Positions 5,010-49,964 of a stretch of 64,000 nt of DNA are shown in pieces. The notes below the pieces were generated by a model. The model was given only the letters and a program-made list of their open reading frames with translations, was not told the origin of the DNA and did not search any database. Both the position numbers and the translations under genes were made by a program. Positions within the stretch are counted from its first letter, which is position 1; each line of letters starts with the position of its first letter. This DNA is from Salinivirgaceae bacterium (GTDB taxonomy: Bacteria > Bacteroidota > Bacteroidia > Bacteroidales > SZUA-534): contig JAFYYJ010000117.1 in assembly GCA_017557605.1 (NCBI GenBank), forward strand, positions 9,366 through 73,365, in the 5' to 3' direction.

Positions 5010-5395
5010 AGCTCAAATTTTGGCGCAAAGGTAAAAGTTGAGTTAAAAGTTTAACGCTTTAAGTTCTATGTTTTAAGGCAAAAGTGAAAAGGCATAAGAA
5101 GTACAAAGCACGTTTTGCTATCAGCAAACTACGCCAATAAAAAAAGCCTCCGAATCGAAGGCCTTTCTTTTACTTAACCAAACCAACTTATTATGAAAAC
5201 TTTACATCATAAACGTGTATCATCGATTTATGTTTTGAAATTATTGGTGATAGATATGGTAAAAAAATGAAACACACGTCACTTTTTTTTCAACCCGACA
5301 ACATCTTTATCGCGATTTATTTCTACTTTACGTTTTGCAATTCACAATAAAAAAACCACTTTTATTGTTACTGCGCAACAGAAACAGAACAAGGA

Positions 5396-7612
5396 ATGAA
5401 ATTATCTCGCATCAGTTTGAATATCTGTTTAATATGGCTCATCGTAAGCATGCTGCCATTGGGTCTGTCTGCGCAAGATTCCGACGACTACGAGCAGCAT
5501 ATTTTAGACAGCGTGACCGACATTGCCAACAACTCTGCCGACATTAACGCGCGCCTCGAAGCACTAGACTTCATCACCATAAACCACCCAAATGTTGATT
5601 CGACACTAAAATACTGCGAGATTGAAGCCAAGCTTGCAAAAGAGCATGGCGATTATTTCAAGTTGGTGTCTTCGCTCCGGGTAGCAGCATGGTGCCACTA
5701 CTACAACTTCAACTACAACCTGGCTAACGAATACTATTTCAAAGCGTTGCACGTGAGTGACTCGGTTCAGTACAAATTTGGAATAGGCATGTGCTACCAC
5801 AGCATCGCCAACACCATGGCCATGATGAGCAACTTTGCCGAAGCCGACAAGTACGACTACCTAGCCTTGCAGATTTTCTACGAGCTGAACGATACCGCCA
5901 ACATCAGCGAGATTCACCGGTCGCTAGGCCTCATGTATGCAGATTTCCAGCTGTACACAACCGCCGAAGAGCATTTCAGCAAAGCCCTCGAACTCGACAT
6001 CCTTCAAAACAACACAAAAAAAATAGCCGACGACTATCGGCATTTTGCTGTTACAAACCTGTGCCGGTACGACGATTTGCTACAAGACAGCCTTATTCTG
6101 AAATCGCGCAACTACGCACTGAAAAGCTACCGACTGATTAAAAAGATAGGAACCGACTTTGACATGATGATAGCCTGCCTCAACCTGATGAGGATTTACT
6201 ACGAATTTGCCGAAGACAACACCTCTCGACAGCAGCAACTAATGGACAGCAGCCGATTTTTCTTCCGCAAAGGCCGTTCTATAGCTGCTAAAGACGGCTT
6301 CCTCGAAAAATCGTGCGACTTCAAGATGCAAGAAGCGCGTTATGCCATTTTGGACAAGGACTTCGGGAAGGCGCTCCAACTCATAAAAGAGACTGAGGAT
6401 ATTATGCGCGACGATTCATCGGCATTGTTCTTCATGGACTTGTATTCCATTTACAGCCAATACTATACGGCCACTGGCGACCACAAAAAAGCCTACGAGT
6501 ATCTGTGTCGGAGAACCGAGCTGAAAGACAAATTTCTGAACAGCAACTCCTCGCTTTACACCTCGAAATCGAATGTGCAGAACGAGTTTGACGAGATGAT
6601 GACAAAAATCAGTCTCGAAGACCAGAAGAAACGAATCCGCAAAATGGAGGAAGAGCGCCTATGGCAGATAATCAACGGTTCGGCTATCGGACTTACGATA
6701 CTGACAATCATCATTATAATAACAATACGCCGCGGACGCCGCCACAAACGGGTGCTGGGCCGCATACTCGAGCAGCGCATGGAAGAAGTTGAAGCACAGC
6801 GAAATCAGCTTGAAATGATGAACAATCAGATGAAACAAAGCATCAACTTCGCACAGCATATACAAGATTCGATACTTCCCCAGAATCAAGCTCTTGAGAA
6901 GATATTCGGGGAGATGCTGATTCTATGGAAGCCGCTCGACATTGTGTCGGGCGATTTCTACTGGGGCACCGCAATGGATGACAACAAACTGCTGGCAGTG
7001 GTCGACTGTACCGGCCACGGAGTTCCGGGCGCGTTCATGAGCATGCTTGGCGTGCGCTCGCTGGGCGACATTGTGGCCTCTGTAAAAACGGACGGCAGAG
7101 AGCTTAACGCCGCCGACATCCTAAATCGCATGCGCGACAAAGTGATAACATCACTCCACCAAACCGAGCAGAACAGCCTGACACTCGACGGAATGGACAT
7201 GGCGCTGATTATACTGAACGATAGCACTTTGGAAATGCAATACGCCGGTGCGTTCCGTCCGCTCATAATAATCCGCGGCGACGAGGTAATAATGATAAAA
7301 GCCGACAAGATGCCCGTCAGCTTCATAAAAGCCGACGACCGCCCGTTCCGCAACAATGTTTTAGAGATGCAGAAAGGCGACACCGTCTATATGTTCTCCG
7401 ACGGCATCCCCGACCAGTTCGGCTTAAGAAAAGACGGCAGCGAAGGCAAATTCAGCACAAAACGACTGATTACGCTGCTTCAGGAAATACACGACAAACC
7501 ATTTGCCGAGCAGAAAACACTCATCGAGGAAGAACTTGACAAGTGGCGGCAGAACGGCAACTCGTCTTATCCGCAAACCGATGACATAGTCATATGCGGC
7601 TTCAAAATCTGA
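5396..7612 (+). CDS. TPR-repeat / single-TM / coiled-coil / PP2C (SpoIIE-family) Ser/Thr phosphatase receptor
   Basis: 738 aa. Signal-like N-terminus (MLPLGLSAQ), TPR-like repeats, one TM helix (AIGLTILTIIIIITI) and a coiled coil. C-terminal SpoIIE motifs are VSGDFYW, DCTGHGVPGAFMSM, FSDGIPDQ and TDDIVICGF. Confidence 0.85.
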   Translation: MKLSRISLNICLIWLIVSMLPLGLSAQDSDDYEQHILDSVTDIANNSADINARLEALDFITINHPNVDSTLKYCEIEAKLAKEHGDYFKLVSSLRVAAWCHYYNFNYNLANEYYFKALHVSDSVQYKFGIGMCYHSIANTMAMMSNFAEADKYDYLALQIFYELNDTANISEIHRSLGLMYADFQLYTTAEEHFSKALELDILQNNTKKIADDYRHFAVTNLCRYDDLLQDSLILKSRNYALKSYRLIKKIGTDFDMMIACLNLMRIYYEFAEDNTSRQQQLMDSSRFFFRKGRSIAAKDGFLEKSCDFKMQEARYAILDKDFGKALQLIKETEDIMRDDSSALFFMDLYSIYSQYYTATGDHKKAYEYLCRRTELKDKFLNSNSSLYTSKSNVQNEFDEMMTKISLEDQKKRIRKMEEERLWQIINGSAIGLTILTIIIIITIRRGRRHKRVLGRILEQRMEEVEAQRNQLEMMNNQMKQSINFAQHIQDSILPQNQALEKIFGEMLILWKPLDIVSGDFYWGTAMDDNKLLAVVDCTGHGVPGAFMSMLGVRSLGDIVASVKTDGRELNAADILNRMRDKVITSLHQTEQNSLTLDGMDMALIILNDSTLEMQYAGAFRPLIIIRGDEVIMIKADKMPVSFIKADDRPFRNNVLEMQKGDTVYMFSDGIPDQFGLRKDGSEGKFSTKRLITLLQEIHDKPFAEQKTLIEEELDKWRQNGNSSYPQTDDIVICGFKI

Positions 7613-7625
7613 AAAGCACAATGAA

Positions 7626-9830
7626 ATGAGAAAATTAGCATCCAAAATATTGATATTAATATTGCTCACGGCATTGTGCACAACACGCGCAACCGCGCAA
7701 GACATGCATGAGATTGACAGCCTTGTGCAAGTTGCCGATACCATGCCCAACGACACCAACAAACTGGCTGTGCTTAATTTAATATGCCGCATGCACTCCA
7801 ACGCCGATTCGGTTTACAAATACGCAGATGAAATGCTCAACCTGGCCAAAGCCAAACATTTAAAAAAATGGGAAGCCCAAGCCTACCACATGCAGGCTTG
7901 GTATTTATACAACGTTAATGAACTTGAAAAAGCGTTGGAATACAACTACAAATCGCTCCGAATAAACGACTCGTTGGGTTTACGATTCGAAACAGCCATG
8001 AGCTATACGGCGGCGGGCGAGTGCCTGAACGAATTAGGCGACAGGCAAGCCGCCAACAAATATTACAACATTGCGCTCGACATTCTGGCGGAAATCGAAA
8101 ATACTTCAGCATCCGCCCCTATATTACGTGACTTGGGAGTCATGTGTATTACCACAAAACTGTACGACAACGCCCGCAAATACATGTACGATGCCCTCAA
8201 AATAAACGTTCAGGAAGGCAACACCCGAGAGGTTCTCATCGACCACCTCTACTTGGGTTTCATAGACTGCGCCGAATACGAAACAACCAAAAACGCGCTG
8301 ACTATTCTTGACGCCCGCCGGCACAGCGACGCCGCCTACAACCTGGCACTCAAGCTTGACAACGACTACTACCTCTGCCATACCGAGCAAGTCCAAATGG
8401 AAGTGTACTTGAACTATGCAACAGTTCTTAACGAGCCGCTGCGCACCGTTATGCTCGATAGCAGCCTTCGTTTCTACAACGACGCCGTCGAACTTGCCAA
8501 GAGACTTGGCTACTACGAGGGCTATTACTATGGACTCGAATTATGGAAAGCGAAATATCTGCTCACCACAAAATCAGTAAAGAAAAGCCTTGAACTGCTC
8601 CGCACTATTGAGAAAAAGGCCGAAAGCGACTCCGCAACTATCGCCTTCATCGACATCTACGGACTCTATACCCAGTGCTATGCGGCCTTAGGCAACTACC
8701 AGAAAGCACTGGAATACAAGAGAAAACAGATGCTGCGTGAAAACATCGACAACAACCGTGACTTTACGGTAAACTCAATGCGTGTGAACGCAAAAGAGGA
8801 GTTCGAACGCAGCCTGCGCCAACACCAACTCGACGAAGAGCGCGAAGCCATAATATACAACCTGCACAAACTGCACATGCGCATTGTCAGCTTCATCATC
8901 TTCGGGTTCCTGCTTATCATAAGCGTATTCGCCATAATAGTTTTCCGCAACTGGAAACGCGAGCATCATACCAACATAGTGCTGATGCAGCAGAACAAGA
9001 AATTCGTCGAACAGCGCGACAAACTTGCCGACATCAACTACCAGATGACATCGAGCCTGATGTACGCACGCGGCATACAGACAGCTATAATGTCGTCGCC
9101 CGAAAGTTTGAACAAAATTTTCGGCAACAGCCTGATAATATGGAACCCAATGGAGATAGTGTCAGGCGACTTCTACTGGGCTGCGCAGATTGGACGTCAC
9201 AAGATTATAGCCGCCGCCGACTGCACCGGACACGGCGTCCAGGGCGCGTTCATGAGCATCCTTGGCATGATTGCCCTCAACGACATTACCTCAGACGACA
9301 GTTTCACAATTGGCGACAACGCGGCTGCTGAACTGCTTAACCTGCTCAGAGCCAAGATGATTGAAACGCTCCACCAGCAGGATAAAGACTGGACCAACTC
9401 GAAACCCGAAGGAATGCACATCGCCCTCTGCATATTGGACACCGAGACGCGCAAGATGCAATACGCCGGCGCTTACCGCCCGCTCATCATAGCCCGCCGC
9501 AAAGGACTAATCCTATATCAGCCCGACAAGATGATTATAGGCTACCAACCGGGCAAAAACGACTCGTTCACCAACAACACTATCAAATTGTCGGAGGATG
9601 ACACTATATATATGTATACCAACGGCATATCCGAGCAGCTCAACAACGACAAAAAAGGTGTCAAATTCACATCGATAAGGCTGAACAACCTGCTTGAAGC
9701 AAACTACACCAAACCGTTTGCCGAGCAACGCCAGATAATTGAAGACTCCGTCAAGAAATGGCGCACCGAATCGGGCAACATCAGCGAACAAACCGATGAC
9801 CAGCTGCTTATCGGGTTCCGCATCGATTAA
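7626..9830 (+). CDS. TPR-repeat / single-TM / coiled-coil / PP2C (SpoIIE-family) phosphatase receptor, tandem paralog of the preceding gene
   Basis: 734 aa with the same architecture. Signal-like LLTALCTTRATAQ and TM helix IVSFIIFGFLLIISVFAIIVF. SpoIIE motifs VSGDFYW, DCTGHGVQGAFMSI, YTNGISEQ and TDDQLLIGF. It starts 13 nt after the previous stop. Confidence 0.85.
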   Translation: MRKLASKILILILLTALCTTRATAQDMHEIDSLVQVADTMPNDTNKLAVLNLICRMHSNADSVYKYADEMLNLAKAKHLKKWEAQAYHMQAWYLYNVNELEKALEYNYKSLRINDSLGLRFETAMSYTAAGECLNELGDRQAANKYYNIALDILAEIENTSASAPILRDLGVMCITTKLYDNARKYMYDALKINVQEGNTREVLIDHLYLGFIDCAEYETTKNALTILDARRHSDAAYNLALKLDNDYYLCHTEQVQMEVYLNYATVLNEPLRTVMLDSSLRFYNDAVELAKRLGYYEGYYYGLELWKAKYLLTTKSVKKSLELLRTIEKKAESDSATIAFIDIYGLYTQCYAALGNYQKALEYKRKQMLRENIDNNRDFTVNSMRVNAKEEFERSLRQHQLDEEREAIIYNLHKLHMRIVSFIIFGFLLIISVFAIIVFRNWKREHHTNIVLMQQNKKFVEQRDKLADINYQMTSSLMYARGIQTAIMSSPESLNKIFGNSLIIWNPMEIVSGDFYWAAQIGRHKIIAAADCTGHGVQGAFMSILGMIALNDITSDDSFTIGDNAAAELLNLLRAKMIETLHQQDKDWTNSKPEGMHIALCILDTETRKMQYAGAYRPLIIARRKGLILYQPDKMIIGYQPGKNDSFTNNTIKLSEDDTIYMYTNGISEQLNNDKKGVKFTSIRLNNLLEANYTKPFAEQRQIIEDSVKKWRTESGNISEQTDDQLLIGFRID

Positions 9831-11231: not shown

Positions 11232-11450
11232 AAACGGTAAGAGTTTAGAGTTGAGCGCTTCGCTGTTTAGAAGGTTGAAAGTTTTAAGTTTTAGAAGTTT
11301 AAAGTTTAGAATGTTTAGAGCTTCGCTGTTTAGAAAGTTGAGTTCTAAAACATCTCGACTTTCTAAATCTTCTCAATCTTTTAAATTCATTACATTCCTA
11401 CATTTTTCCAAAACACTAATGCCTTTTGCCTTCTGCCTAATGCCTTTCTT

Positions 11451-18319: not shown

Positions 18320-19372
18320 ATGCAACTCACGGTAATTCCATATACGCTTAATTTTAAGCAACCTGCGGGCACGTCGCGGGGTGTTTACACCGAACACAAG
18401 GTCTGGTTTCTGCGGATGCAGGACGACCGTGGCCGCATTGGTTGGGGCGAGGTGGCGCCGCTGCCGAATTTGAGTTGCGACGATGTGCCTGATTTTGAAT
18501 CGGTTCTGCACGATGTTGCAGCCAATTTCAACGGCAAAATCGATTACGAGCGGTTGCGCAACTATCCTTCGATTCTGTTCGGGTTGGAGTGTGCGCAAAT
18601 GGCTTGCAATGAGTTCGATACAATGGATATGAGCACGCCTTTCGCCATTGGAACCGACGGAATAACAATCAACGGACTTGTGTGGATGGGCAGTTTTGAG
18701 GAGATGAGCGCACGGGTTGAAGACAAACTGCGACAAGGCTTCAGTTGTATCAAGATAAAAATCGGCGCTATCGATTTCAAGAAGGAATACGAACTGTTAC
18801 AACTTGTGCGTCAGCGCTTTCCTGCCGACAAGATAACAATTCGCGTTGATGCCAACGGCGGTTTCGGTCCCGACGATGCACCGCAAAAATTGGAGCGGTT
18901 GGCTCGGCTCGACATTCACTCAATCGAGCAGCCGATAAGGGCTGGGCAGTGGCTGAAAATGGCCGAATTGTGCCGCACATCGCCCATTAAAATTGCTTTG
19001 GATGAGGAACTTATCGGTGTGAACGACCCGAAACGAAAACTCGAACTTCTTGACACCATAAAACCGCAGTATATAATCTTGAAACCGTCGCTGCACGGCG
19101 GATTGAGCGGTTGCAACGAGTGGATTCGGCTTGCACGCGAGCGCGGTATCGGCTTTTGGGCAACATCGGCGCTGGAGTCGAACATCGGGCTGTATTACAT
19201 TGCGCTTTGGGCCGCAACGCTCGGAATCGACATCCCGCAAGGACTTGGCACAGGAGCGCTCTACACCAACAACATCGATTTGCCGCTGCAAGTTGTTGGA
19301 GAAAAACTATGGGTGAAAGGGTGCGTGGGGAAGAAAATGAGAGAGTTAGATATTAGAGAATTAGAGAGTTAG
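18320..19372 (+). CDS. menC: o-succinylbenzoate synthase (enolase superfamily)
   Basis: 350 aa with enolase-superfamily metal-ligand regions (KIKIG, IRVDANGGF, IEQP, ALDEEL) in men-cluster context. The last about 11 codons (MRELDIRELES) read into a C-free tandem repeat, so the true C-terminus is uncertain. Confidence 0.85.
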   Translation: MQLTVIPYTLNFKQPAGTSRGVYTEHKVWFLRMQDDRGRIGWGEVAPLPNLSCDDVPDFESVLHDVAANFNGKIDYERLRNYPSILFGLECAQMACNEFDTMDMSTPFAIGTDGITINGLVWMGSFEEMSARVEDKLRQGFSCIKIKIGAIDFKKEYELLQLVRQRFPADKITIRVDANGGFGPDDAPQKLERLARLDIHSIEQPIRAGQWLKMAELCRTSPIKIALDEELIGVNDPKRKLELLDTIKPQYIILKPSLHGGLSGCNEWIRLARERGIGFWATSALESNIGLYYIALWAATLGIDIPQGLGTGALYTNNIDLPLQVVGEKLWVKGCVGKKMRELDIRELES

Positions 19373-19390
19373 AGAATTAGAGAGTTAGTG
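19339..19390 (+). repeat. tandem 16-mer AGAGAATTAGAGAGTT (two perfect copies at 19355-19386 plus a degenerate copy upstream), spanning the menC stop codon
   Basis: Read directly from the sequence: gagagagttagatatt / agagaattagagagtt / agagaattagagagtt / agtg. Confidence 0.9.
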
Positions 19391-19463
19391 TAAAGTAGGA
19401 CTGTGGTCTTATGTCTGTAGTCCATTGTCAATTCAGTTATTCAATTAGTCAATCAATCAGTTA

Positions 19464-23985: not shown

Positions 23986-25402
23986 TAGTCAGATATTTAT
24001 CAAGATAGTTATCACCTTTCCCCGAGCGTCCGGCCACGGCAAACTTGGCTTTGGCGGCCTTGCCGTTTTCGCTGTCATCATCAATATAAACCAACGAACC
24101 GAACCTGTCGATAATGAAATATGGCTCGGGCTCGGTTTTTCCACGGCGTACGCTTGCCACGGCGAATGTGCTTTTGGCAGCTTTATCGCTTTCGTTTTCA
24201 TCCAAATCGATATAGAATGTCGCCTGGTCACCGTCGACATTCAGCACATCGTCGTCGCCCTTACCCGAGCGACCAGCCACAGCAAATTTGGCTTTGGCAG
24301 CCTTGTCTGTTGTATTGAAATCGACATAGACTGTTGAGCCGTCACCATCAATAGTGAACATGTTCTCTTCGCTCTTGTTGCGGCGTATGCTTGACACGGC
24401 AAATTTAGCTTTGGCGGCTTTTCCGCTTTGATTATCATCAACATAGATTGTCGCGCCTTGACCGTCAACAGTCATTAGGTTTTCCTCGCCTTTGTTGCGG
24501 CGTATGCTTGACACGGCAAATTTGGCTTTGGCGGCTTTTTCGCTTTGGTTATCATCAACATAGATTGTCGCACCTTGACCGTCAACAGTCATCAGGTTTT
24601 CATCGCCCTTGTTGCGGCGTATGCTTGACACGGCAAATTTGGCTTTGGCGGCTTTTCCGCTTTGGTTATCATCAACATAGATTGTCGCGCCTTGATTGTC
24701 AATGGTCAACAGATTTTCATCGCCCTTATTGCGACGTATGCTTGACACGGCAAATTTGGCTTTGGCGGCTTTATCATTTTGGTTATCGTCATCTTCAACA
24801 TAGATTGTCGCACCTTGGTTGTCAACAGTAAGCAAGTCTTCCTCTCCTTTGTTGCGACGTATGCTTGACACGGCGAACTTCGCTTTTGCGGCCTTCGAGT
24901 CATCGTCATAATCTACAAAAACCTTAACGCCCGTCTCATAAACAGCAAACAGCATGTTGCCATCGTTGTCCTTGATTTGGAAGATAGGCTCGTCAGTAGC
25001 CTCTTTAGGCTGAATGACAGTGGTTGTGCGTGGAGTGTACATGGTGTATGGCACCGGTTGAATCTGCAGCGCACCCATGTTGGTATAGGTGGAGCCGTCG
25101 GTGCTCACCTCAACTTGCATCATTACCCGCATTGTCTCCCACGGGATGGCAGTAAAGCTGCCTTGCAGACCTGTTCCTTCGCCAACATTGACATTGACAT
25201 TGCCATAGGCGTTGGTGGTTGTCTGGTGCACTTCTTTGTAATAGACACTGTCGGCCAGCATCACACTTAACCGCAGACTCACGGTTTTGTTTTCGAGCAC
25301 TTTGCCATCGTCGCGGATAACAGCTTGATAGCTAAACGAATTCTGTGCAACAGCCGTTGCAACTGCCAACAGCGCAACAAAACCCAACAATAATTTTTTC
25401 AT
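23954..25402 (-). CDS. large surface protein, N-terminal part: signal peptide, conserved N-domain and eight KAAKAKFAV-type repeats. Probably the upstream piece of a frameshifted gene.
   Basis: 482 aa. Signal peptide MKKLLLGFVALLAVATAVAQ. An N-domain (NSFSYQAVIRDDG...IPWETMRVMMQVEVSTDG...IQPVPYT) is shared with the 32975 gene. Eight repeats are built on KAAKAKFAV(S/A)(S/G)(I/R)(R/S). The ORF overlaps the next ORF by 32 nt in another frame. Confidence 0.75.
   Translation of the reverse strand: MKKLLLGFVALLAVATAVAQNSFSYQAVIRDDGKVLENKTVSLRLSVMLADSVYYKEVHQTTTNAYGNVNVNVGEGTGLQGSFTAIPWETMRVMMQVEVSTDGSTYTNMGALQIQPVPYTMYTPRTTTVIQPKEATDEPIFQIKDNDGNMLFAVYETGVKVFVDYDDDSKAAKAKFAVSSIRRNKGEEDLLTVDNQGATIYVEDDDNQNDKAAKAKFAVSSIRRNKGDENLLTIDNQGATIYVDDNQSGKAAKAKFAVSSIRRNKGDENLMTVDGQGATIYVDDNQSEKAAKAKFAVSSIRRNKGEENLMTVDGQGATIYVDDNQSGKAAKAKFAVSSIRRNKSEENMFTIDGDGSTVYVDFNTTDKAAKAKFAVAGRSGKGDDDVLNVDGDQATFYIDLDENESDKAAKSTFAVASVRRGKTEPEPYFIIDRFGSLVYIDDDSENGKAAKAKFAVAGRSGKGDNYLDKYLTIEEDSTRLYK
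24377..24850 (-). repeat. in-frame tandem repeat of four near-identical units (117, 117, 117 and 123 nt), flanked by more diverged copies from about 23990 to 24900
   Basis: The word gttgcg(g/a)cgtatgcttgacacggc(a/g)aa recurs at 24377, 24494, 24611 and 24851, with the variant attgcgacgtatgcttgacacggcaaa at 24728. Units 24494 and 24611 are almost identical over their first about 75 nt. Confidence 0.9.
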
Positions 25403-26860: not shown

Positions 26861-27020
26861 GACACAAAAGTAGTTTTAAGTTCTGAGTTATAAGTGATAA
26901 GTTAAATGTTTAACAAGTTGAGACCTTACACTTTTTAATCATGGTCATCGTTATTTGATTTAGTTTAAGTTTTCTGTTTTACGTTTACGTTTTTATCTTT
27001 ACCACCTCAACAAAACCGAT

Positions 27021-29291
27021 ATGTCACGATTCCGTTTTCTTAGTCTGATTCTGACAATGCTAAGTGTCAATGCCATGGCGCAGCTGTCGGCCAACTCGTG
27101 GCGCGACCACCTCAGCTATCGCGACGGGCGCATAGTGGCTGTGAGCGACTCAAAGGTTTACTGCGCCACCGACCTCAGCCTCTTCTATCTCGACAAAGAC
27201 GACCACTCGCTCAACCACCTGTCGCCCATTGAAGGAATGACTGAAACGGGTGCTGGTTACATTGCCTATTGCGACAAGCTGCACTTGCTTGTGGTGGCCT
27301 ACAACAGCGGCAACATCGACCTTGTGTACGACAACGGCAAGATTATCAACTTGTCTGGACTTAAAGACGCACAGTTCACTACCGACAAACGGACAAACCA
27401 CATCTGCATCGACGGGCACATGGCGTATCTGTCATGTAACTTCGGCATAACGGCTGTCAATCTTGAAAAACGTGAGTTTGCCGACACATACATTCTTGGC
27501 AAAGGCGGCAACCTGTTAAAAATAAACTGCACAGCGGTTTGCGGCGACTATCTTTACGCCTTCACCAATTCAGGACTGATGCGCGGCCGGCTCGACAATC
27601 CGTTCCTCAGCGACCTGAAAAACTGGGAGCTGGTGCCGGGAAGCGACCTCACACATTTCTACAACACAGGTTGCGTATTCAACGGCCAGCTGATTGTGGG
27701 CGAGCGTTTCGCCAATGACTCAACATCGCGTGTGTCAGTTTTCGATGGTGAAAAGATGACTGTGCTGTGGGACAGCCTGCCTATGCTGAAATCGCTGACA
27801 AGCCGCGGAGACTACCTTGTGCGAACCACATACGCCGACATCGACTTGTTCGATACCAAAATGCAAAGCCGAAGCCATTACAGTGACGTTCTGATACAAA
27901 TGGGCATAGCCGACGGCGCGGATAGAATATGGTTCGCTCACTCGTATGACGGACTTGCCTGCATCAACAAAGGACAACACGATTATTACACTCCATTGGG
28001 ACCAGCACGTAACCGTTTCTTCAAGATAAGCTACAACGCCGGCGACATTCTTCTGGCACCCGGTGGAAAAAAAGATATTGGCACAGGCGAGAACAAATGG
28101 CTACCAGCCAACATTTACCGATTTACAGACGGACAATGGACCAGCATCAGCTATTCGGAATATCCTGAAATAGCCAAATGCTTTGATGTGTGCGATTTTA
28201 TCACGCACGGCAACCGCAATCATTTTCTTGCGTCGTCTTGGTTTTCAGGACTGATTGAGTACAACAACGGCACCTACCGCTACATCGACACCACAACGGC
28301 TGGCGTCAACATCTACCGCGTGAGTTCAGGCTGCTACGACTCAAAAGGCAACCTTTGGGTTAACTGTTCACACACAAGCAATTACATAGCCGTCCGCAAA
28401 CCCGACGGTCAATGGTTCAGCTACGCCTACGACCCAAAACTGTCGAACGAGAACCTGGGCAAGATGCTGCGCACCTACAAAGGCGACTTCTGGATAACAA
28501 CACCCAAGGGCACCGGCATCCTTGTCTTCAACACAAACGACACCCCCGAAACCAAAGCTGACGACAACTACACTTATTTTATGCCGACCGACGAGAACGG
28601 AAACGCCTTCAACGCCTACATCAACGATATTGTGGAGGACAACAACGGTCAGCTGTGGGTAGCTTCCGACGAAGGCGTTTATGTGTTCGACCACCCCGAA
28701 CAGGCTCTTGACGGCGAGACAGACGCACGCCGTCCGCAGATGATTGTCGAGGGTTTCTACCAGCCGTTACTCTCAACCGAGCGCGTGACATCAATTGTAA
28801 TTGACGGCGGCAACCGCAAATGGTTCGGCACCGATGGCGGCGGCATCTTCCTTATATCGCCCGATGGCACCAAGCAATTAGCCGAGTACAACACCTCCAA
28901 TTCACCGCTTTTCTCAAACAATGTGCAGTCGATGACACTAGACTATGACAAAGGCATTCTTTACATAATAACTGACATGGGATTGCAGTCGGCCATGATA
29001 TCATCATCAATACCAAAATCAACGTTTTCTGATATTTACGCCTACCCCAACCCTGTTGAACCCGACTATCAGGGCGATGTGCATATACACGGCCTGATGA
29101 ACAATACCACTGTGCGCATAACCGACCTTTACGGCAATCTGGTGTTTGAAACGATGAGCAACGGCGGCGGCGCAACCTGGAACCTGCGCAATATGAGCAA
29201 TCGTCCGGTGGTTACAGGTATCTACCTGATACACTGCGTAACCAAAAATGGTGAAAACCGCGAGGCTGGGACAATTCATGTAGTAAGATAA
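27021..29291 (+). CDS. beta-propeller protein with T9SS C-terminal sorting domain (PorZ-like)
   Basis: 756 aa. Signal peptide LSLILTMLSVNAMAQ, then two-component-regulator-propeller-like repeats. The C-terminal about 85 aa (YAYPNPVEPD...VRITDLYGNLVFE...TGIYLIHCVTKNG) fits a T9SS CTD. Size and architecture match PorZ. Confidence 0.7.
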   Translation: MSRFRFLSLILTMLSVNAMAQLSANSWRDHLSYRDGRIVAVSDSKVYCATDLSLFYLDKDDHSLNHLSPIEGMTETGAGYIAYCDKLHLLVVAYNSGNIDLVYDNGKIINLSGLKDAQFTTDKRTNHICIDGHMAYLSCNFGITAVNLEKREFADTYILGKGGNLLKINCTAVCGDYLYAFTNSGLMRGRLDNPFLSDLKNWELVPGSDLTHFYNTGCVFNGQLIVGERFANDSTSRVSVFDGEKMTVLWDSLPMLKSLTSRGDYLVRTTYADIDLFDTKMQSRSHYSDVLIQMGIADGADRIWFAHSYDGLACINKGQHDYYTPLGPARNRFFKISYNAGDILLAPGGKKDIGTGENKWLPANIYRFTDGQWTSISYSEYPEIAKCFDVCDFITHGNRNHFLASSWFSGLIEYNNGTYRYIDTTTAGVNIYRVSSGCYDSKGNLWVNCSHTSNYIAVRKPDGQWFSYAYDPKLSNENLGKMLRTYKGDFWITTPKGTGILVFNTNDTPETKADDNYTYFMPTDENGNAFNAYINDIVEDNNGQLWVASDEGVYVFDHPEQALDGETDARRPQMIVEGFYQPLLSTERVTSIVIDGGNRKWFGTDGGGIFLISPDGTKQLAEYNTSNSPLFSNNVQSMTLDYDKGILYIITDMGLQSAMISSSIPKSTFSDIYAYPNPVEPDYQGDVHIHGLMNNTTVRITDLYGNLVFETMSNGGGATWNLRNMSNRPVVTGIYLIHCVTKNGENREAGTIHVVR

Positions 29292-29398
29292 GTGAGTAGA
29301 GTGTTAAGTTTAGAGTTTAATGTTTTAAAAGATGCGGCATTGCCTTGTCAGCAAACCGTTCAGTCGTAATTCTAAATTCGTAATTCATAATTCAAAAG

Positions 29399-40075: not shown

Positions 40076-40184
40076 TAGCCAAAAGGCACAAGGCATAAGA
40101 GTAAGGAGTAAAGAATAAGGTGTAAAGCTAAAACCTTTCACGCTCATTTACGTTTTAGTTATCGTTATCGTCAGCGTTATCGTC

Positions 40185-41615
40185 CTACTTAATCAGCGTC
40201 TTATAAATATTGTAACGCTCGATTATATCGCGGACAAAATTGTGCGTTTCGTCGCCGCGGCAATAGCCCGTGCGCACAAGTTCCGGATTGTAATACAGCT
40301 TGTCCGATTTGTGGCGCAGGAAAAAATCAACATTACCGTCGCCGTCCCAAACATCGGGATTGCCGCCATTGGCACGGGCCACACGACGCGCGTCGAGCAC
40401 ATGCCCCAGCCCGATATTGTATGACGCCAGGATGAATTTCACCCTCTCCTCCTCGTTGGCCACAGAGTCTTTGAGCTGCTTGTTGAGCCATTTTATAAAC
40501 TTCACTCCGGCTTTAATGTTGGCTTCGGCGCTTGCTGTGGTGTCGATACCAAAATGCTGCGCCGTTTCGGGCATCAGTTGCATCAGACCGAAAGCTCCGC
40601 ACCATGAGCGGGCGTTCTCGTTGAACCGCGACTCCTGATAGATAAGCGAGGCCAGCAGCCGCCAGTCCCAGTCAATCTGTTTGCTATATTTTTTAATAAT
40701 GTCGTCGTACTTCGATATTGAGCCGCCACGGAACGACTGATACGGACTTTGCGCGCGAGTGAGCGTCTTCGGGTCTTTGAAATATTTTTTGTAGAGTACC
40801 ATGTGAAAAGCCGAGTTCCGCATTCCCGCAATCCAATTGTTGGCGGCCTCAAGCAGCTGCGGATTGTCTTTGCTGACAGCCCACGCCATGTTTTGCGGGA
40901 ACGACACTGCCGTAGCAATATCCAGCACCGGATAATATGTCTGGTTTATCATGGCCACATCCTCGTCGGTAACGCAATAGTCAATCTCACCCTTCGCTAC
41001 CTGCTCAATAAGTTGCTCTGAATCAATATTTTCCACCTCGACAATATTGATAGTGTCACCTATTTCCGACTCAATATTGTGAAGTCTTTCGGCAAAAGCG
41101 GAATTCTTAACCACATGAATGGTCTTTCCGGCCATGTCAAGTGTCGATTTTATGTGCATTTCGCCCTTGTAGTTGCGGTTATTGCGCTGCCGTTGGCGCT
41201 CCGACAGTTGCACAAGCACTTGCCGGGTCTGCATAATTGGCATGGTGAAATTCATCTGTTTCTGACGGTCGGCTGTAACAGTCAGATTTATAGCGATAAT
41301 ATCAGTTTCGTGATTTGCCAATTCCTCAAAATCATTTTCCAGATTGTTCGACACTTTAACCTCAAGGTCTAAATTGAGCGAGTTGGCGAAATCGCGCAGC
41401 AACTCATACTGATAGCCCATAAGCGTGCCGCGATAGATGAAGTAGCTTATCGAGTTGTAATCGGTTGTCGCAATCAGTTTGCCGCGTTGGGTTATTTCAG
41501 GCAGGTCATGGCCTTCGATAGCAGCATTGGGAGTTTTGCTGCCGCACGCGCAGAATAGTAGTGCCGCGCTTATCAGAACTGATATTTTCCGTAGCAGTCT
41601 CATATCAATCTGCAA
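40185..41615 (-). CDS. lytic murein transglycosylase with N-terminal solute-binding-like domain (MltF-like)
   Basis: 476 aa with lipoprotein signal LFCACGS and an SBP_bac_3-like N-domain. The C-terminal SLT catalytic region reads LIYQESRFNENARSWCGAFGLMQLMPETA. Confidence 0.85.
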   Translation of the reverse strand: MQIDMRLLRKISVLISAALLFCACGSKTPNAAIEGHDLPEITQRGKLIATTDYNSISYFIYRGTLMGYQYELLRDFANSLNLDLEVKVSNNLENDFEELANHETDIIAINLTVTADRQKQMNFTMPIMQTRQVLVQLSERQRQRNNRNYKGEMHIKSTLDMAGKTIHVVKNSAFAERLHNIESEIGDTINIVEVENIDSEQLIEQVAKGEIDYCVTDEDVAMINQTYYPVLDIATAVSFPQNMAWAVSKDNPQLLEAANNWIAGMRNSAFHMVLYKKYFKDPKTLTRAQSPYQSFRGGSISKYDDIIKKYSKQIDWDWRLLASLIYQESRFNENARSWCGAFGLMQLMPETAQHFGIDTTASAEANIKAGVKFIKWLNKQLKDSVANEEERVKFILASYNIGLGHVLDARRVARANGGNPDVWDGDGNVDFFLRHKSDKLYYNPELVRTGYCRGDETHNFVRDIIERYNIYKTLIK

Positions 41616-42316: not shown

Positions 42317-42414
42317 CTGAATTTTAAAGTATAACGTGTAAAGAGTAAAGTTTTAAAGTGTTTTAAGTTTCATTAATCATTACTCTTTAATCATTTACCA
42401 TTACACACTAACAC

Positions 42415-43065
42415 CTAGTCTTTTTCACCGAAACAAAGGTCGCCGGCATCGCCCAATCCTGGAACTATATACGATTTGGCTGTCATTTCGCTGTCGATAG
42501 CGGCGGTCCAAATGGTAACAGGCTTGCCGTATGTGTTGCGCTGCAGATAGTCAAGTCCCTCAGTGCTTGCAATCACCGATACGATATGCGTGTGGACGGG
42601 CGTTCCTTTCTTCAACAACTCCTGGTACGACAGCACCATTGAAGCGCCGCTGGCCAGCATCGGGTCGACAAGGATGAGCGTTTTGCCTTCAATTGACGGT
42701 CCCGACACATTGCCGAAATTGATATGGAACGTGCCGTCTTTCTCATACTTGCGATAGGCCGAAATGAAAGCGTTTTCGGCATTGTCGAATACGTTCAAGA
42801 AGCCGTTGTGAATAGGCAGACCGGCCCGCAAAACACTTGCAATGACAGGCTGCGACACAAGTTTTGGCACTTGGGCCACCCCAAGAGGTGTGGCGACATC
42901 GGCAACTTCAAACTTCATCTGCTTGCTGATTTCGTATGCTATCATCTCTCCAATACGTTCCATGTTGCGACGGAAACGCATGCGGTCGCGCTGAATGCCG
43001 CTATCGCGCAGTTCGGCCATAAACTGATTCAGAATACTATTCTGTGCACCAAGATTGTTAACCAT
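42415..43065 (-). CDS. upp: uracil phosphoribosyltransferase
   Basis: 216 aa with PRPP-binding motif LILVDPMLASGASM and the C-terminal YIVPGLGDAGD motif typical of Upp. Confidence 0.9.
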   Translation of the reverse strand: MVNNLGAQNSILNQFMAELRDSGIQRDRMRFRRNMERIGEMIAYEISKQMKFEVADVATPLGVAQVPKLVSQPVIASVLRAGLPIHNGFLNVFDNAENAFISAYRKYEKDGTFHINFGNVSGPSIEGKTLILVDPMLASGASMVLSYQELLKKGTPVHTHIVSVIASTEGLDYLQRNTYGKPVTIWTAAIDSEMTAKSYIVPGLGDAGDLCFGEKD

Positions 43066-46757: not shown

Positions 46758-46765
46758 TACATTTG
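46758..46765 (+). promoter_or_regulatory. Bacteroides-type -7 promoter box (TACATTTG) upstream of the LRR protein gene
   Basis: Exact TAnnTTTG match 28 nt upstream of the ATG at 46793. Confidence 0.4.
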
Positions 46766-46792
46766 CCGCCTGTGATTTAAAAACGCTATAAT

Positions 46793-49714
46793 ATGAAACG
46801 CATTTTCACAATTCTATTTGCCGCAATGCTTACCGGACAGACGTGGGCAACCGATTATGATTTTAAAATTGACAACGTATGCTACAGCACTTGGTTTGGG
46901 GATGCATACGTCGAATGTGAGAATAGTTCCGACGACTATGCCAACAACTATTCCGGCCTGACAACTGTTACAATACCAGATACTATAGAGTACGATGGCG
47001 ACAAATATCCAGTTATAGGTATTTCCAGGAGCGCCTTTAAAAATTGCAGCAGCCTGACATCAATAACCCTACCCAATACTATTCATAATATTCGAGAATA
47101 TGCTTTCGAAGGCTGTAGTAGTTTGGAATCAGTTGTTATTCCGAGCTCAGTTACAAGTTTGGGTGAGAATGTATTTTGTAATTGCACCAGTCTGGCGTCT
47201 GTGACTTTGCCCGACACAATTACTTATATTTCCGCAGCTGCATTTGGTAATTGCAGCAGTCTGACATCCATTGAAATACCGAATACAGTTACGTTTATAG
47301 GCAACAGCGCATTTTCGGGAAGCGGATTGACTTCTATCGAAATACCGAAATCGGTTACGGAAATAGCAAGTTTTGCATTTAAAGAGTGCGATGGGTTGGA
47401 AACTATTACGATTCCGGCGACTGTTGAAAAAGTACAGTCCTGGGTGTTCCAAGGATGCGATAATTTGACAGTCAATTGCTGTGCAACTTCAATTCCAGCG
47501 GGTTGGAGTACTTATTGGAACGACTACAACATACCTTACAATTTAGGAAGTTGTGGAGAAGGAAGGACGTGGACTGTCAATCTTTCTGCCAACAACAGCT
47601 CGTACGGAAGCGTGAGCGGCGGCGGCACTTATGCCGATGGCTCAACCATTACAATCACAGCAACGCCAGCATCGGGTTACAAATTTGTAAAATGGAGCAA
47701 CGACTTGACAACTGCAACGGCAACCATAACCGTAACATCCGATTTGAATCTTGTGGCAGAATTTGCAGAAATATCGCTTCAATATGAAATCACAGGCAGT
47801 AATACGGTTCAGGTTGTACATTCAGAAGACTATAAAAATCTGACAGATGTTGTGATACCAGAAACAGTTGAAATTGAGGGAAAAACTTATTCTGTTGCTC
47901 AAATTGGTGATTCTGCATTTTATAATTGCAGTAAACTATCGTCACTGACTATACCAGAAACAGTTATAAGCATTGGTAGACATGCGTTTGCAAATTGCAG
48001 CAGTCTGACTTCGATAGCCATTCCTAATTCGGTTTGTGCTTACAGTTATGAAGGTTTATTCAAAGGGTGTTCATCGCTTCAGTCAATAACGTTGCCGTTT
48101 GTTTTCGGTCCGTTCGGAGAAATCTTTGGTTCGGAATATTACGAAGGCTGTATCGAAACAAAACAAGTCCGCTACGAAGGAAATATGAATGAAGAAGAAT
48201 ACACATCATATATACCATCATCGCTCAAGACGGTGACAATAAATGGTGGTGTTATTTGTAATGGCGAATTCCGCAACTGCAGAAATATAGAGTCAATCTT
48301 CATCTCCGGTACAACAACATCAATTGGATGGCATGCTTTTGCCAATTGCAGCAACTTGAAATCATTGACTATTTCCGAATCAGTCTCTTACATTGCCGAT
48401 GCTGCGTTCAACGATTGTGAGAGTATCGAGACTCTGAGTTACAACACTAACGCCGTCACTCAGCAATTTCGAGAAAAAAAAGCGCTTAAAACAATAAATA
48501 TTGGTGAATCGGTTACCAAAATCAGCAACTATGCATTTTTCCTTTGTTCTAATTTGACATCGGTAACTATTCCAAATTCAGTAGAATCCATTGGGGAATC
48601 TGCTTTCGACAATTGTTGCAACTTGAAAAATGTTTCCGTTCCAAGCTCTGTAAAAACAATCGGCGATGATGCATTTTGTCTTGTGGTCAACGTTATGTAT
48701 AGTGGAACAGCAAGCGGTAGTCCGTGGAAGGCTTGCAACATCAACGGAACAATTGACGGTGATTTTATCTATGCCGATAAAAAACTGACAAAACTTGTAG
48801 CATACATTGGTCAGGGAGGCGATGTTGTCATTCCTGAATCAGCAAAAAGCATTGGCGATTATGCATTCTCAAACACAGATATAACCTCGGTTATATTTCA
48901 CAACGGTGTTGATTCCATAGGATGGGGTGCGTTTAGTGGCTGTACGGGTCTAGCTTCTGTAGTTATTCCCGAAGGTGTTACTGGCATTGATTACTATGCA
49001 TTCGAAAATTGTACAAATCTGAAATCAATATCTATTCCTAATTCAGTAACATATGTCCCAGATGATGTGTTTGAAGGGTGCAATAGTCTTCAATACAACG
49101 AATATGGTAATGCTTTGTACTTAGGTAACGATAAAAATCCGTATTTATGGCTGACAACAGCAAAGTCAACAGATATAACGACTTGTACTATAAATGATAA
49201 TTGCCAACATGTTATGAATGAGGCATTTATGGGTTGTAAAAAACTCGAGTCTGTGAATATCCCGAATTCTGTGAAAACCATCGGTTGGTATGCATTTGAT
49301 GGATGCGACAAATTCACAACAGTAACCATACCCCAAACCGTTGAATTCGTCAGCAGCTATGCGTTCGGACATTGTGAAAACCTGACAGTGATTTATTGTG
49401 GTGCAAGTGAACGTCCTGATGACTGGGCTTACAACTGGTATTATTACGATTACGACGACAGCGACAAATACCAAATAGTATGGAGTGCTATAACCCCTAT
49501 CACCGAATCCGCCGCCAACACAGTGAACATCTATGCCTTCGGCAACAAAATTGTGGTTGAAAATGCCACGGATGAAATTCGTGTATATAATGCAATGGGC
49601 AAATTAATCTGCAGGGACGTGGCATGCCGCGTCTGCGCAGAAATAACCGTCAACGCCACAGGTGTTTACATTGTTAAAACCGGCAGCGCGGTGAAACGTG
49701 TTGTGGTGAATTAA
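46793..49714 (+). CDS. BspA-type leucine-rich repeat surface protein with T9SS C-terminal sorting domain
   Basis: 973 aa with signal peptide ILFAAMLTGQTWA. It has many LRR_5-like units (AF..CSSLTSI.IPN.V..IG..AF) and an Ig-like repeat (YGSVSGGGTYADGSTITITATPASGYKFVKWSN). The CTD reads VNIYAFGNKIVVENATDEIRVYNAMGKLI...GVYIVKTGSAVKRVVV. Confidence 0.85.
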   Translation: MKRIFTILFAAMLTGQTWATDYDFKIDNVCYSTWFGDAYVECENSSDDYANNYSGLTTVTIPDTIEYDGDKYPVIGISRSAFKNCSSLTSITLPNTIHNIREYAFEGCSSLESVVIPSSVTSLGENVFCNCTSLASVTLPDTITYISAAAFGNCSSLTSIEIPNTVTFIGNSAFSGSGLTSIEIPKSVTEIASFAFKECDGLETITIPATVEKVQSWVFQGCDNLTVNCCATSIPAGWSTYWNDYNIPYNLGSCGEGRTWTVNLSANNSSYGSVSGGGTYADGSTITITATPASGYKFVKWSNDLTTATATITVTSDLNLVAEFAEISLQYEITGSNTVQVVHSEDYKNLTDVVIPETVEIEGKTYSVAQIGDSAFYNCSKLSSLTIPETVISIGRHAFANCSSLTSIAIPNSVCAYSYEGLFKGCSSLQSITLPFVFGPFGEIFGSEYYEGCIETKQVRYEGNMNEEEYTSYIPSSLKTVTINGGVICNGEFRNCRNIESIFISGTTTSIGWHAFANCSNLKSLTISESVSYIADAAFNDCESIETLSYNTNAVTQQFREKKALKTINIGESVTKISNYAFFLCSNLTSVTIPNSVESIGESAFDNCCNLKNVSVPSSVKTIGDDAFCLVVNVMYSGTASGSPWKACNINGTIDGDFIYADKKLTKLVAYIGQGGDVVIPESAKSIGDYAFSNTDITSVIFHNGVDSIGWGAFSGCTGLASVVIPEGVTGIDYYAFENCTNLKSISIPNSVTYVPDDVFEGCNSLQYNEYGNALYLGNDKNPYLWLTTAKSTDITTCTINDNCQHVMNEAFMGCKKLESVNIPNSVKTIGWYAFDGCDKFTTVTIPQTVEFVSSYAFGHCENLTVIYCGASERPDDWAYNWYYYDYDDSDKYQIVWSAITPITESAANTVNIYAFGNKIVVENATDEIRVYNAMGKLICRDVACRVCAEITVNATGVYIVKTGSAVKRVVVN

Positions 49715-49740
49715 TGATTTGGTAAAATGTTGATTTTATG

Positions 49741-49775
49741 GTAGAGACGACGCACACATCGTCTCTACTTTTTTT
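49741..49775 (+). terminator. intrinsic terminator of the LRR gene
   Basis: Perfect 10-bp stem, gtagagacga (49741-49750) with tcgtctctac (49759-49768), followed by T7. Confidence 0.85.
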
Positions 49776-49964
49776 ATGACGTCAATTCGTGTTTTACTCG
49801 AGTTATCGATAATTCATGCCTCCTATTCACCTCTTTAAACTTTACTCATTACACTTAACACCTTACTCACTTTTTTTAATAATTTCGCACTCGAATTTCA
49901 CGCAAGTGTCATTGCTGCGTAAAATTCTGATTGTTAGATTATTAATTATTTAAACGATTATAAA

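Follow-up and report, generated by a model that had tools for sequence, protein, structure and literature searches.

In a window of 64,000 nt from a rumen Bacteroidales genome (G000; window contig C107), ten tracts at gene borders lack one nucleotide entirely, seven of them being free of C and three free of G, which raises the question of what these sequences are and why the missing base depends on the neighboring gene. The original prediction described them as non-random, as sharing a vocabulary of words, and as C-depleted just after stop codons and G-depleted just before start codons when read in the sense of the flanking gene. All ten tracts are present in the window sequence, at the positions predicted apart from two 1-nt slips (base 49818 is a G, so that the G-free run is 49819-49885), their flanking genes (ABC-F, TadA, AKR fusion, MenC, YidD, PorZ, CoA-transferase, TsaC-type, Upp, and GpmI) were named correctly, and the orientation rule is obeyed by 10/10. 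The words said to recur in opposite orientation also do so, each with an offset of 1 nt: positions 29292-29310 match the reverse complement of 49852-49870 at 16/19 positions, and 42343-42358 equals the reverse complement of 49833-49847 except for one extra T. The tracts and the arrays next to them are listed in Table 1.

Table 1. Repeat tracts of the window, their flanking genes, and their composition.
Feature	Position	Strand	Context	Details
C-free tract	5027-5054	+	18 nt upstream of ABC-F gene start; G-free in ABC-F sense because the gene is on -	Weak periodicity (AAAGKT-type words); extends to about 5105 with AAGGCA words and few C
G-rich half of tadA/AKR gap	11232-11340	+	Upstream of tadA start; G-free in tadA sense	GTTTAGA/GTTTAAA-type arrays broken up at two places by a dispersed GCTTCGCTGTTTAG motif; C-free core 11264-11320 (TRF 11264-11319, 11279-11317)
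C-rich half of tadA/AKR gap	11343-11450	-	After AKR-fusion stop; C-free in AKR-fusion sense	TTCTAAATC arrays (G-free core 11358-11420), then (TGCCTTT)x4, i.e., AAGGCA units in AKR-fusion sense (TRF 11343-11386, 11420-11447)
Octamer array (AGAGAATT/AGAGAGTT)x7	19325-19400	+	Overlaps menC stop codon	TRF 19332-19388; MFE 0; final 47 nt of menC ORF read from the array
C-free tract	26884-26913	+	Just upstream of yidD start; G-free in yidD sense because the gene is on -	
(TTTACGT)n array	26959-27002	+	Upstream of porZ start	Unit family with one G and one C
C-free tract	29278-29334	+	Spans porZ stop (29289-29291)	TAGAGTT/TTTAATG heptamer array (TRF 29297-29325)
(TCGTAAT)x4.3 array	29364-29393	+	Second half of porZ gap; abuts start of next gene (29399)	Not complementary to first half of porZ gap
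AAGGCA words, then (GAGTAAG/AATAAGG) heptamer array	40080-40127	+	After CoA-transferase stop, convergent gap	C-free core 40095-40127 (TRF 40097-40127)
Hexamer array (GTTATC)x4.3	40158-40183	-	Abuts stop of convergent gene 40185-41603	GATAAC in sense of that gene
C-free array (TAAAGTTT / GAGTAAA units)	42336-42370	+	Upstream of tsaC-type start; G-free in tsaC sense	
G-free array (TCATTAA x4.9)	42368-42417	-	Runs into upp stop codon; C-free in upp sense	
G-free tract	49819-49885	-	Upstream of gpmI start 49965; G-free in gpmI sense	MFE 0; between a GTAGAGACG-hairpin terminator (about 49743-49780) on the 5' side and the gpmI start on the 3' side; shares inverted-orientation words with tracts at 29292 and 42343

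Repeat Nature of the Tracts

A genome-wide exclusion scan, as the original prediction had proposed, finds such runs to be commoner in intergenic DNA than in genes or in per-gap shuffles. Intergenic DNA makes up only 13% of the genome but holds 338 C-free and G-free runs of at least 40 nt, vs. 122 in genes, as delimited by home-made gene calls with approximate start codons and some small genes missed, including four PF05635 genes. Runs of at least 40 nt that lack A or T number 10 in intergenic DNA genome-wide. Inside intergenic gaps, 233 runs of at least 40 nt and 90 of at least 50 nt were observed, against about 80 and about 18, respectively, in per-gap shuffles; 0/30 shuffles reached the observed counts, and the comparison is conservative because each gap retains its own composition. 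The excess over chance is clear, but the chance of 1e-7 first given for a 57-nt C-free run was overstated, since the intergenic frequency of C is 0.19 and not 0.25.

The tracts are periodic at 7 nt, with identities of 0.46, 0.43, and 0.415 at lags 7, 14, and 21, compared to 0.36 after shuffling, and NAG/TAA words are regularly spaced at 7 nt within them. Their common vocabulary is real, because they are built from recurring units in tandem (GTTTAGA, GATTAAT, GAGTAAA, AAGGCAT, and GAGAGTTA among others). Genome-wide, TRF detects 278 arrays of period 7 (219 intergenic) and 96 of period 14 (88 intergenic); heptamers are the dominant unit length and octamers the second, and the units fall into dozens of families. 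The tracts are a population of tandem repeat arrays and not a quirk of composition. Head-to-tail copies of 5-11 nt units beyond chance, an intergenic location, and variation in copy number and sequence among close relatives are all found. The genome as a whole is populated by short tandem repeats of the long simple sequence repeat class, of which the tracts of the window are the purest in appearance.

Orientation Relative to Genes

In same-strand and convergent gaps, the G-carrying, C-free strand reads 5' to 3' away from the nearest gene. TRF arrays follow this orientation by 76:10 at tandem starts, 82:24 at tandem stops (40:3 for pure arrays), and 41:7 in convergent gaps, and exclusion runs no more than 10 nt from a convergent stop favor the outward G-strand by 42:2. 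The predicted rule therefore holds genome-wide in these contexts but fails in divergent gaps, where arrays are unpolarized (17:13, a sample of only 30 arrays) and sparser (0.5 arrays/kb vs. 1.1-1.6 elsewhere). It is better put in geometric terms, as a G-rich strand that points away from the gene closest to it. The restriction of polarity to gaps lying downstream of a gene narrows the possible explanations. The AAGTTTT family occurs at both stops and starts in opposite orientation (7:0 at stops, 0:9 at starts), and the order within gaps is G then C in about 40 cases vs. 3 to 6 in reverse. About 163/207 array-bearing tandem gaps have arrays of one orientation, polarized and abutting a gene; where a tandem gap is filled by a single array, neither orientation prevails (10 vs. 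6). Congeners follow the same rule (41:10). The start/stop rule is not absolute, because PF05635 four-helix-bundle genes have a G-rich array before their start and a C-rich one right after their stop.

The best axis of orientation is G-C (178:36), compared with 166:53 for purine-pyrimidine and 109:103 for A-T asymmetry. An artifact of ORF calling was also considered for the stop side and rejected, as ORF 3' ends hide only 3 C-rich arrays vs. 15 G-rich ones.

Transcriptional Context and Turnover

Single tracts do not fold (MFE 0 kcal/mol), whole gaps give z-scores of +0.26 to -1.8, and an Rfam scan of the window matched only a tRNA and no family at the tracts. Lacking a hairpin, the tracts are not intrinsic terminators, which are defined by a GC-rich hairpin and a U-run, and visual inspection reveals no apparent hairpin-plus-U terminator in the convergent gap between the CoA-transferase gene and gene 40185-41603. 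Genome-wide, 17% of tandem gaps with arrays have an intrinsic terminator vs. 33% of other tandem gaps (Fisher p = 5e-6), and 4/18 convergent gaps of 40-120 nt with arrays have one vs. 137/190 without (p = 4e-5), while the -7 promoter box is present in 16% of array-bearing gaps vs. 36% of others (p = 2e-8). The arrays thus favor gaps without a -7 box and without an intrinsic terminator, and therefore they are probably co-transcribed spacers. Apparent avoidance of the box TAnnTTTG inside arrays (0 vs. 13.6 expected) was discounted because positions 1 and 8 of the motif differ, which is impossible in a perfect 7-mer; only a two-fold deficit of TTTG stands.

G-poor leaders had been explained by the unstructured 5' UTRs of Bacteroidota, which lack Shine-Dalgarno (SD) sequences. 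This is correct in part, but the G-free tracts consist of repeat arrays and occupy gaps most of which have no -7 box, and ordinary promoter-proximal leaders in divergent gaps, which do have TTTG promoter boxes, are more often C-free than G-free (15:5).

The arrays change rapidly, through unit-sized indels and wholesale replacement, and are individually dispensable. The upp/tsaC gap has 98 nt here, vs. 6 to 183 nt of unrelated sequence in 13 other species of the genus, one congener having only 6 nt. Compared with the relatives G009 and G015, respectively, orthologous gaps have identities of 0.92 and 0.75 where they hold tracts vs. 0.98 and 0.87 where they do not, and between relatives with 95-98% amino-acid identity arrays appear, vanish, or give way to hairpins. 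In annotation, such tracts should be treated as unstable repeat spacers and not as regulatory RNAs; contigs probably break at them, and spurious C-terminal extensions, the menC tail for example, are likely to stem from them. Two wider counts were set aside: GC content confounds the numbers of 50-nt C-free windows across 31 relatives, which cannot be interpreted by themselves, and a survey of 80 loci around one conserved operon had too few gaps, with counts confounded by low-GC genomes.

Relation to Known Repeats

Both the repeat class and its polarity are already published for other bacteria (PMC4692102, PMC4679880, PMC6344855). Intergenic tandem heptamers, GGGAATC in Xanthomonas and GGGGA(C/T)T in Nostoc, have their G-rich strand in sense orientation up to 50 bp after stops and in antisense orientation up to 50 bp before starts; they lie nearer to the 5' neighboring ORF whichever way that ORF is oriented, are under-represented between divergent ORFs, and differ in length and sequence between close species (Rehm 2015, PMC4692102). 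The arrays described here share the tandem heptamers, the intergenic location, the polarity, the scarcity in divergent gaps, and the variation between species. On the other hand, they comprise dozens of unit families and not one, many exclude C or G completely, and G stands singly in their AT-rich units (GTTTAGA, GATTAAT, etc.), from which a G-quadruplex should not be able to form; judging by the unit sequences, four G-tracts are not available and runs of G are confined to minor families (GGGTGTT). This genome is an extreme AT-rich case in which the polarity shows as complete exclusion of one base in units without apparent G-quadruplex potential, and therefore G-quadruplex formation would not be the general reason for the polarity.

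Direct repeats of TAACTGA and other heptamers occur in Beggiatoaceae, Cyanobacteria, and five Bacteroidetes, directly 5' of start codons and, in Flexibacter litoralis, in reverse orientation after a stop; the Bacteroidetes spacers are mixed assemblages of heptamers that are missing at the same junction in close relatives (MacGregor 2015, PMC4679880). The arrays here are alike in adjoining starts, in being reversed after stops, and in their lability between relatives. The translational regulator proposed for the TAACTGA repeats (PMC4679880) is opposed by the diversity of units in this genome. TAACTGA itself is not among its 60 commonest period-7 units and is absent from the window arrays, but in one relative (G021) the arms of a PF05635 cassette are built from it.

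Long simple sequence repeats with units of 5-11 nt (Mrazek et al. 2007, as summarized in PMC4679880), and the heptamers that outnumber every other intergenic periodic repeat across 7006 prokaryotic genomes (Mori et al. 2018, PMC6344855), are of the same class as these arrays and agree with them in dominant period, a proposed origin by slippage, and no established function. Single-nucleotide exclusion, polarity, and the link to junctions without promoter or terminator are not described in those accounts. The preference of arrays for such junctions, together with the complementary arms at every PF05635 gene described below, further limits the possibilities.

Origin of the Polarity

The reading that appears somewhat better than even is that the repeats are made by slippage and then filtered by orientation-dependent selection acting on the transcript. 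Arrays would arise through replication slippage or reiterative copying in spacers transcribed by read-through, and arrays in the wrong orientation would subsequently be purged. Before a start codon, a G-free leader would offer no AUG, GUG, or UUG and no G-C or G-U pairs, and so would suit SD-less initiation in Bacteroidota, which favors an unstructured, AUG-poor region; in Bacteroidetes, the surroundings of start codons are reported to be depleted in AUG and low in structure (PMC6847099). After a stop, the C-free orientation may be kept because untranslated spacer RNA then resists Rho loading, or because the rut-like complement faces antisense and convergent polymerases. Part of the polarity may also be inherited, since the small inserts that carry a PF05635 gene have complementary arms made of these arrays, with the G-rich arm coming first. 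The strongest polarity is found in convergent gaps, which have no downstream cistron to protect, and this is a point against selection.

PF05635 proteins belong to the family encoded by ORF-bearing intervening sequences (IVS) of 23S rRNA, and the closest solved relative of the proteins encoded here is Xanthomonas XCC0516 (PDB 2GSC; also PDB 2RLD); none of the copies in this genome lies within rRNA. Inverted, mutually complementary arrays, the G-rich one on the 5' side, flank all seven PF05635 genes of the genome (7/7), and arm duplexes with z < -2 are found at 14/19 PF05635 genes from 19 other genomes across the order. The arm units belong to the same families as the tracts of gene-less gaps. 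The arrays could accordingly derive from hairpin-armed inserts of the PF05635 type, as their arms or as what remains of a single arm after decay, with no need for selection: an inverted repeat has its G-rich arm first on both strands, so that the gene-relative rule would be a geometric by-product. The G-then-C order within gaps fits this alternative, as do the mirrored, nested appearance of multi-array gaps around central GC hairpins, the PF05635 genes themselves, which break the start/stop rule yet retain the arm order, and the independence of the rule from gene orientation (cf. PMC4692102). As the whole explanation it is nevertheless unlikely. Gene-less arm pairs are complementary (z < -2) in only 11/76 cases, with a median z of -0.09, and pairing between two arms of one gap is hardly stronger than between arms taken from different gaps (-12.5 vs. 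-11.5 kcal/mol, p = 0.04), which led specific hairpins between gap halves to be rejected; in the window, which has no PF05635 gene (its contig has none of the eight PF05635 matches of the genome), the two-armed gaps give z = +0.26 (11255-11400) and -1.1 to -1.5 (42317-42414). Furthermore, an orientation-blind insert would not predict the many one-orientation tandem gaps; divergent gaps are unpolarized, and arrays outnumber PF05635 genes by more than 30:1, with counts that do not run in parallel across 31 genomes. A dependence of array load on PF05635 copy number was dropped as too loose, given 2 copies in the array-rich G026 and the presence of arrays in G022, which lacks the gene.

A bolder form of this idea, and a distinctly improbable one, is that heptamer arrays and the PF05635 gene are two parts of one transposase-free element whose hairpin arms, G-rich arm first, seed most polar heptamer repeats between bacterial genes, those of Xanthomonas included. 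If so, the published polarity would have been built in when the arms were made and not selected afterwards.

The original prediction pointed to Rho utilization (rut) sites, and Rho could provide a checkpoint at gene borders. A polymerase entering a gene would transcribe the G-free, C-containing strand, a potential loading site for Rho, from which translation would rescue sense transcripts while antisense and convergent read-through would be terminated; a polymerase leaving a gene would make C-free RNA that does not load Rho, avoiding polarity in operons. One rule would then cover tandem and convergent gaps and explain why untranscribed divergent gaps are unpolarized. The genome encodes a long Rho (584 aa, C76:29643-31364), arrays tend to occupy gaps without an intrinsic terminator, most evidently the short convergent ones, and one strand of each tract resembles a rut in being unstructured, with G = 0 and C of about 0.24. 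That C content is low for a rut, and the tracts also differ from rut sites in being tandem, in lying on the sense strand before starts, and in not being conserved. A limit on the length of rut-like tracts was sought as a sign of Rho avoidance and none was found, G-free and C-free runs in the gene sense being equally long (up to 144 nt). The arrays are dispensable, as the 6-nt gap of the congener illustrates, and the same polarity has been described in Nostoc (PMC4692102), whereas cyanobacteria lack Rho (PMC13289151). A Rho checkpoint is therefore a doubtful explanation.

Regular spacing of NAG/TAA words, and the precedent of the proposal for TAACTGA repeats (PMC4679880), would suit arrays that bind a protein recognizing words at 7-nt intervals in RNA or DNA, with S1, cold-shock, or TRAP/HutP-like proteins as candidates, but such a function is very improbable given that dozens of unrelated unit families are interchangeable at orthologous sites, that no unit is conserved, and that close relatives lack arrays at the same junction.

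Hardly credible, finally, are a compositional accident of AT-rich spacers, which is excluded by the 7-nt periodicity and by run counts above those of per-gap shuffles, and REP/BIME palindromes mobilized by a RAYT, an alternative raised in the original prediction that had the repeat family right but its kind wrong: some words recur inverted and the genome has one RAYT-like (Y1_Tnp) gene, but the tandem heptamer tracts do not fold, contain no palindromic stem-loop of 20-40 nt, and do not match the flanks of that gene (C45:65894-66238), which consist of GC-rich GCCC..GGGC and CCCAAGGC..GCCTTGGG hairpins with no heptamer arrays.

Tandem heptamer arrays in the intergenic tracts

The genome is a 3.10-Mb MAG of 124 contigs (the window is C107:9366-73365), closely related to MAGs from rumen and gut that were submitted as "Salinivirgaceae bacterium" or Bacteroidales. 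Genes were called with a codon-usage-scored ORF picker, which gave 2307 genes covering 87% of the genome, with exact stop codons, approximate starts and part of the small genes missed. The ten C-free or G-free tracts of the original prediction are all present (with one coordinate slip, as position 49818 is a G), both inverted word matches between them are correct with an offset of 1 nt, and the flanking genes were correctly named. Intergenic DNA, 13% of the genome, contains 338 runs of 40 nt or more that lack C or G, vs. 122 within genes; intergenic runs of this length that lack A or T number 10. Separate shuffling of each gap (mono- and dinucleotide) yields about 80 C-free or G-free runs of 40 nt or more where 233 are observed; for runs of 50 nt or more, the shuffled and observed counts are about 18 and 90. 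Near gene ends, mean base composition is only mildly skewed, which sets the tracts apart as a discrete subpopulation rather than a general property of spacers. The observation of the tracts is thus confirmed, and the interpretation that accompanied it is partly supported.

The tracts have a 7-nt periodicity, and the longest are arrays of GTTTAGA, GATTAAT, GAGTAAA, GTGTAAT and GAGAGTTA units, including blocks of identical units. TRF detects 278 arrays of period 7 (219 intergenic), 96 of period 14 (88), 140 of period 8 (79) and 35 of period 16 (32), belonging to dozens of unit families. Many gaps combine several arrays in a mosaic that often surrounds either a small hairpin rich in GC or the dispersed motif GCGCTTCGCTGTTTAG. 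Because 112 of the 219 intergenic heptamer arrays lack any base of the minor G/C type, while others have a single C per unit (AAGGCAT and AATTACG, for example), base exclusion is the most visible face of a G-over-C strand asymmetry in the arrays.

Heptamer arrays between genes were already known as a class (PMC6344855; Mrazek, 2007, as cited in PMC4679880). Heptamer assemblages have been described from Bacteroidetes spacers, those before starts being oriented opposite to those after stops (PMC4679880), and repeats of Xanthomonas and Nostoc share with the present arrays their polarity, scarcity in divergent gaps and variability between species (PMC4692102). Within this class, the present arrays are AT-rich, lack G-quadruplex potential, fall into many unit families and exclude a single base completely.

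Two further observations concern array sequence. At many unrelated junctions, GTTTAGA-type arrays contain a motif, TTTAG(C)GCTTCGCTGTTTAG, that spans about 20 nt and includes a 4-bp mini-hairpin (AGCG-CTT-CGCT); its complexity suggests copying from site to site rather than independent origin. An octamer array supplies the final 47 nt of the menC ORF, so the annotated C-terminal tail of MenC is probably encoded by the repeat and variable.

Polarity relative to genes

Orientation follows a geometric rule: from the nearest gene outward, the G-rich strand reads 5' to 3'. Runs within 10 nt of convergent stops are C-free in the sense strand in 42 cases vs. 2; at tandem stops the C-free sense is commoner by 80:28, and at tandem starts the G-free sense by 58:22. 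The rule sharpens when TRF arrays are counted instead: 76:10 at tandem starts, 82:24 at tandem stops (pure arrays, 40:3) and 41:7 at convergent stops. The AAGTTTT family flips with context (7:0 at stops, 0:9 at starts), and tandem gaps with both kinds of array run from G-rich to C-rich in the sense of the gene about 40 times, vs. 3-6 in reverse. G-C skew predicts orientation best, ahead of purine/pyrimidine and A/T skews. The rule recurs in congeners (41:10), and a check of the calls excluded ORF calling as its source.

In divergent gaps the arrays are unpolarised (17:13) and threefold less dense per kb. Start-abutting C-free runs in these gaps are not arrays; they are ordinary promoter and leader DNA, rich in AT and carrying TTTG boxes. 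The organism's native leader is therefore not free of G. Hence the proposal that G-poor leaders are the usual 5' UTR without a Shine-Dalgarno (SD) sequence explains less than it seemed to.

Inverted arrays around PF05635 genes

Seven genes exceed the family cut-off of PF05635 (23S rRNA intervening-sequence protein), four of which the ORF picker overlooked. They encode four-helix-bundle proteins of 118-134 aa, the closest solved structure being XCC0516 of Xanthomonas campestris (2GSC). Each of the seven lies between inverted arrays built from unit families found in the tracts, with the G-rich arm mostly 5' of the ORF, for instance (GAGAGTTA)n ... (TAACTCTC)n and (GGATTGAA)n ... (CCTTCAAT)n; since only about 21% of tandem gaps hold an array, this is far from chance. 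PF05635 occurs in 1-15 copies per genome in 29 of 31 relatives. Of 19 cassettes sampled in as many genomes, 14 have flanks that pair as a duplex (z < -2), and 16 have more G than C upstream of the gene. The polarity rule is therefore not absolute, as these genes show its inverse. The cassette accounts for some arrays and not the bulk: the ratio of arrays to PF05635 genes exceeds 30:1, the arrays within a tandem gap mostly share a single orientation, and only 11 of 76 gene-less arm pairs are complementary.

Turnover among relatives

The 13 other species fetched from the genus all retain the upp/tsaC junction, where the gap measures 6-183 nt and holds unrelated repeats or a GC hairpin, usually in G-then-C order. 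Among 215 orthologous gaps, identity to the congener G009 (median amino-acid identity 98%) is 0.92 with tracts vs. 0.98 without, and to G015 (95%) 0.75 vs. 0.87. Alignments show entire arrays gained, lost or swapped for GTAGAGACG-type hairpins; no single array is sequence-conserved or indispensable.

Hairpins of the forms GTAGAGACG...CGTCTCTAC and GTAGGGACG recur in gaps (the two half-sites have 47 and 49 copies in the genome). In relatives, such hairpins hold junctions occupied here by heptamer arrays, as in the upp/tsaC gap and at C5:38927. A 973-aa gene of the window is absent from an otherwise syntenic locus on contig C46 of G015, a species at about 90% nucleotide identity, where the region spans about 1.8 kb vs. 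3.3 kb.

Transcriptional context and proposed origin

Intrinsic terminators occur in 17% of tandem gaps with arrays vs. 33% without, and in 4/18 vs. 137/190 of the convergent gaps that measure 40-120 nt. In tandem gaps, the Bacteroidota -7 box TAnnTTTG is found in 16% vs. 36%; in divergent gaps its frequency is 49%. Every difference is significant. Competition for space may be part of the cause; the deficit survives binning of gaps by total or non-array length. The simplest reading of these sequence data is that arrays build up in transcribed-through junctions, which would also account for polarity only downstream of a gene.

The arrays, tandem and rapidly turned over, are polarised only in gaps downstream of genes and prefer junctions lacking promoters and terminators. 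They would arise by slippage and then undergo transcript-level selection dependent on orientation. On the start side, AUG, GUG and UUG are all absent from a G-free leader, as is any pairing through G, in agreement with the known features of SD-less initiation in this phylum (PMC6847099). An attractive alternative is that C-free RNA would evade Rho while its complement would be rut-like for polymerases entering the gene. The terminator deficit agrees with this model, but rut-like sense tracts have no length cap, the arrays are dispensable, and Nostoc repeats share the polarity (PMC4692102) although cyanobacteria lack Rho (PMC13289151). The proposed degenerate REP-like family fails, as do terminators and known RNAs, because single tracts fold to 0 kcal/mol, an Rfam search of the window returned only one tRNA, and the single RAYT-like gene is flanked by GC-rich hairpins unlike the tracts. 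Entire two-armed gaps are no stabler than shuffles (z +0.26 to -1.8).

The rho gene has a 584-aa frame against a 415-position core model, consistent with the insertion-bearing Rho of Bacteroidota.

Other repeats

Coordinates of cassettes, repeats and neighbouring features in the genome under study (C, contig)
Feature	Location	Remarks
PF05635 gene 1	C46:20069-20467	outside window
PF05635 gene 2	C43:27939-28307	outside window
PF05635 gene 3	C48:75730-76086	outside window
PF05635 gene 4	C48:77751-78107	outside window
PF05635 gene 5	C33:3032-3427	outside window
PF05635 gene 6	C96:37020-37400	outside window
PF05635 gene 7	C49:26931-27335	outside window
Y1_Tnp (RAYT-like) gene, single	C45:65894-66238	flanks 65760-65860 and 66340-66430, hairpins GCCCTGAAAGGGC, CCCAAGGC..GCCTTGGG
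~75-nt two-hairpin units, tandem and dispersed	C40:20800-21140; C90:30000-30260; C109:29230-29370	GTCATTCCGAC..GTCGGAATC, ATGCTGAAA..TTCAGCAT
TTTAG(C)GCTTCGCTGTTTAG motif	window 11254-11275, 11318-11335	also in at least 25 other gaps
Array-read end of the menC ORF	window 19325-19372	
117-nt tandem repeat	window 24278-24892	- strand gene; 5.2 copies, 85% matches
973-aa gene	window 46793-49714	
GTAGAGACG...CGTCTCTAC/GTAGGGACG hairpin	window 49743-49780	T-run after one, terminator-like
rho	C76:29643-31364	

The Y1_Tnp gene with its flanking hairpins looks like a REPtron, a repeat family apart from the heptamer arrays. The two-hairpin units, 85-95% identical between distant gaps, are one more interspersed family. 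The 117-nt repeat, within a 482-aa gene, corresponds to a protein repeat of 39 aa.
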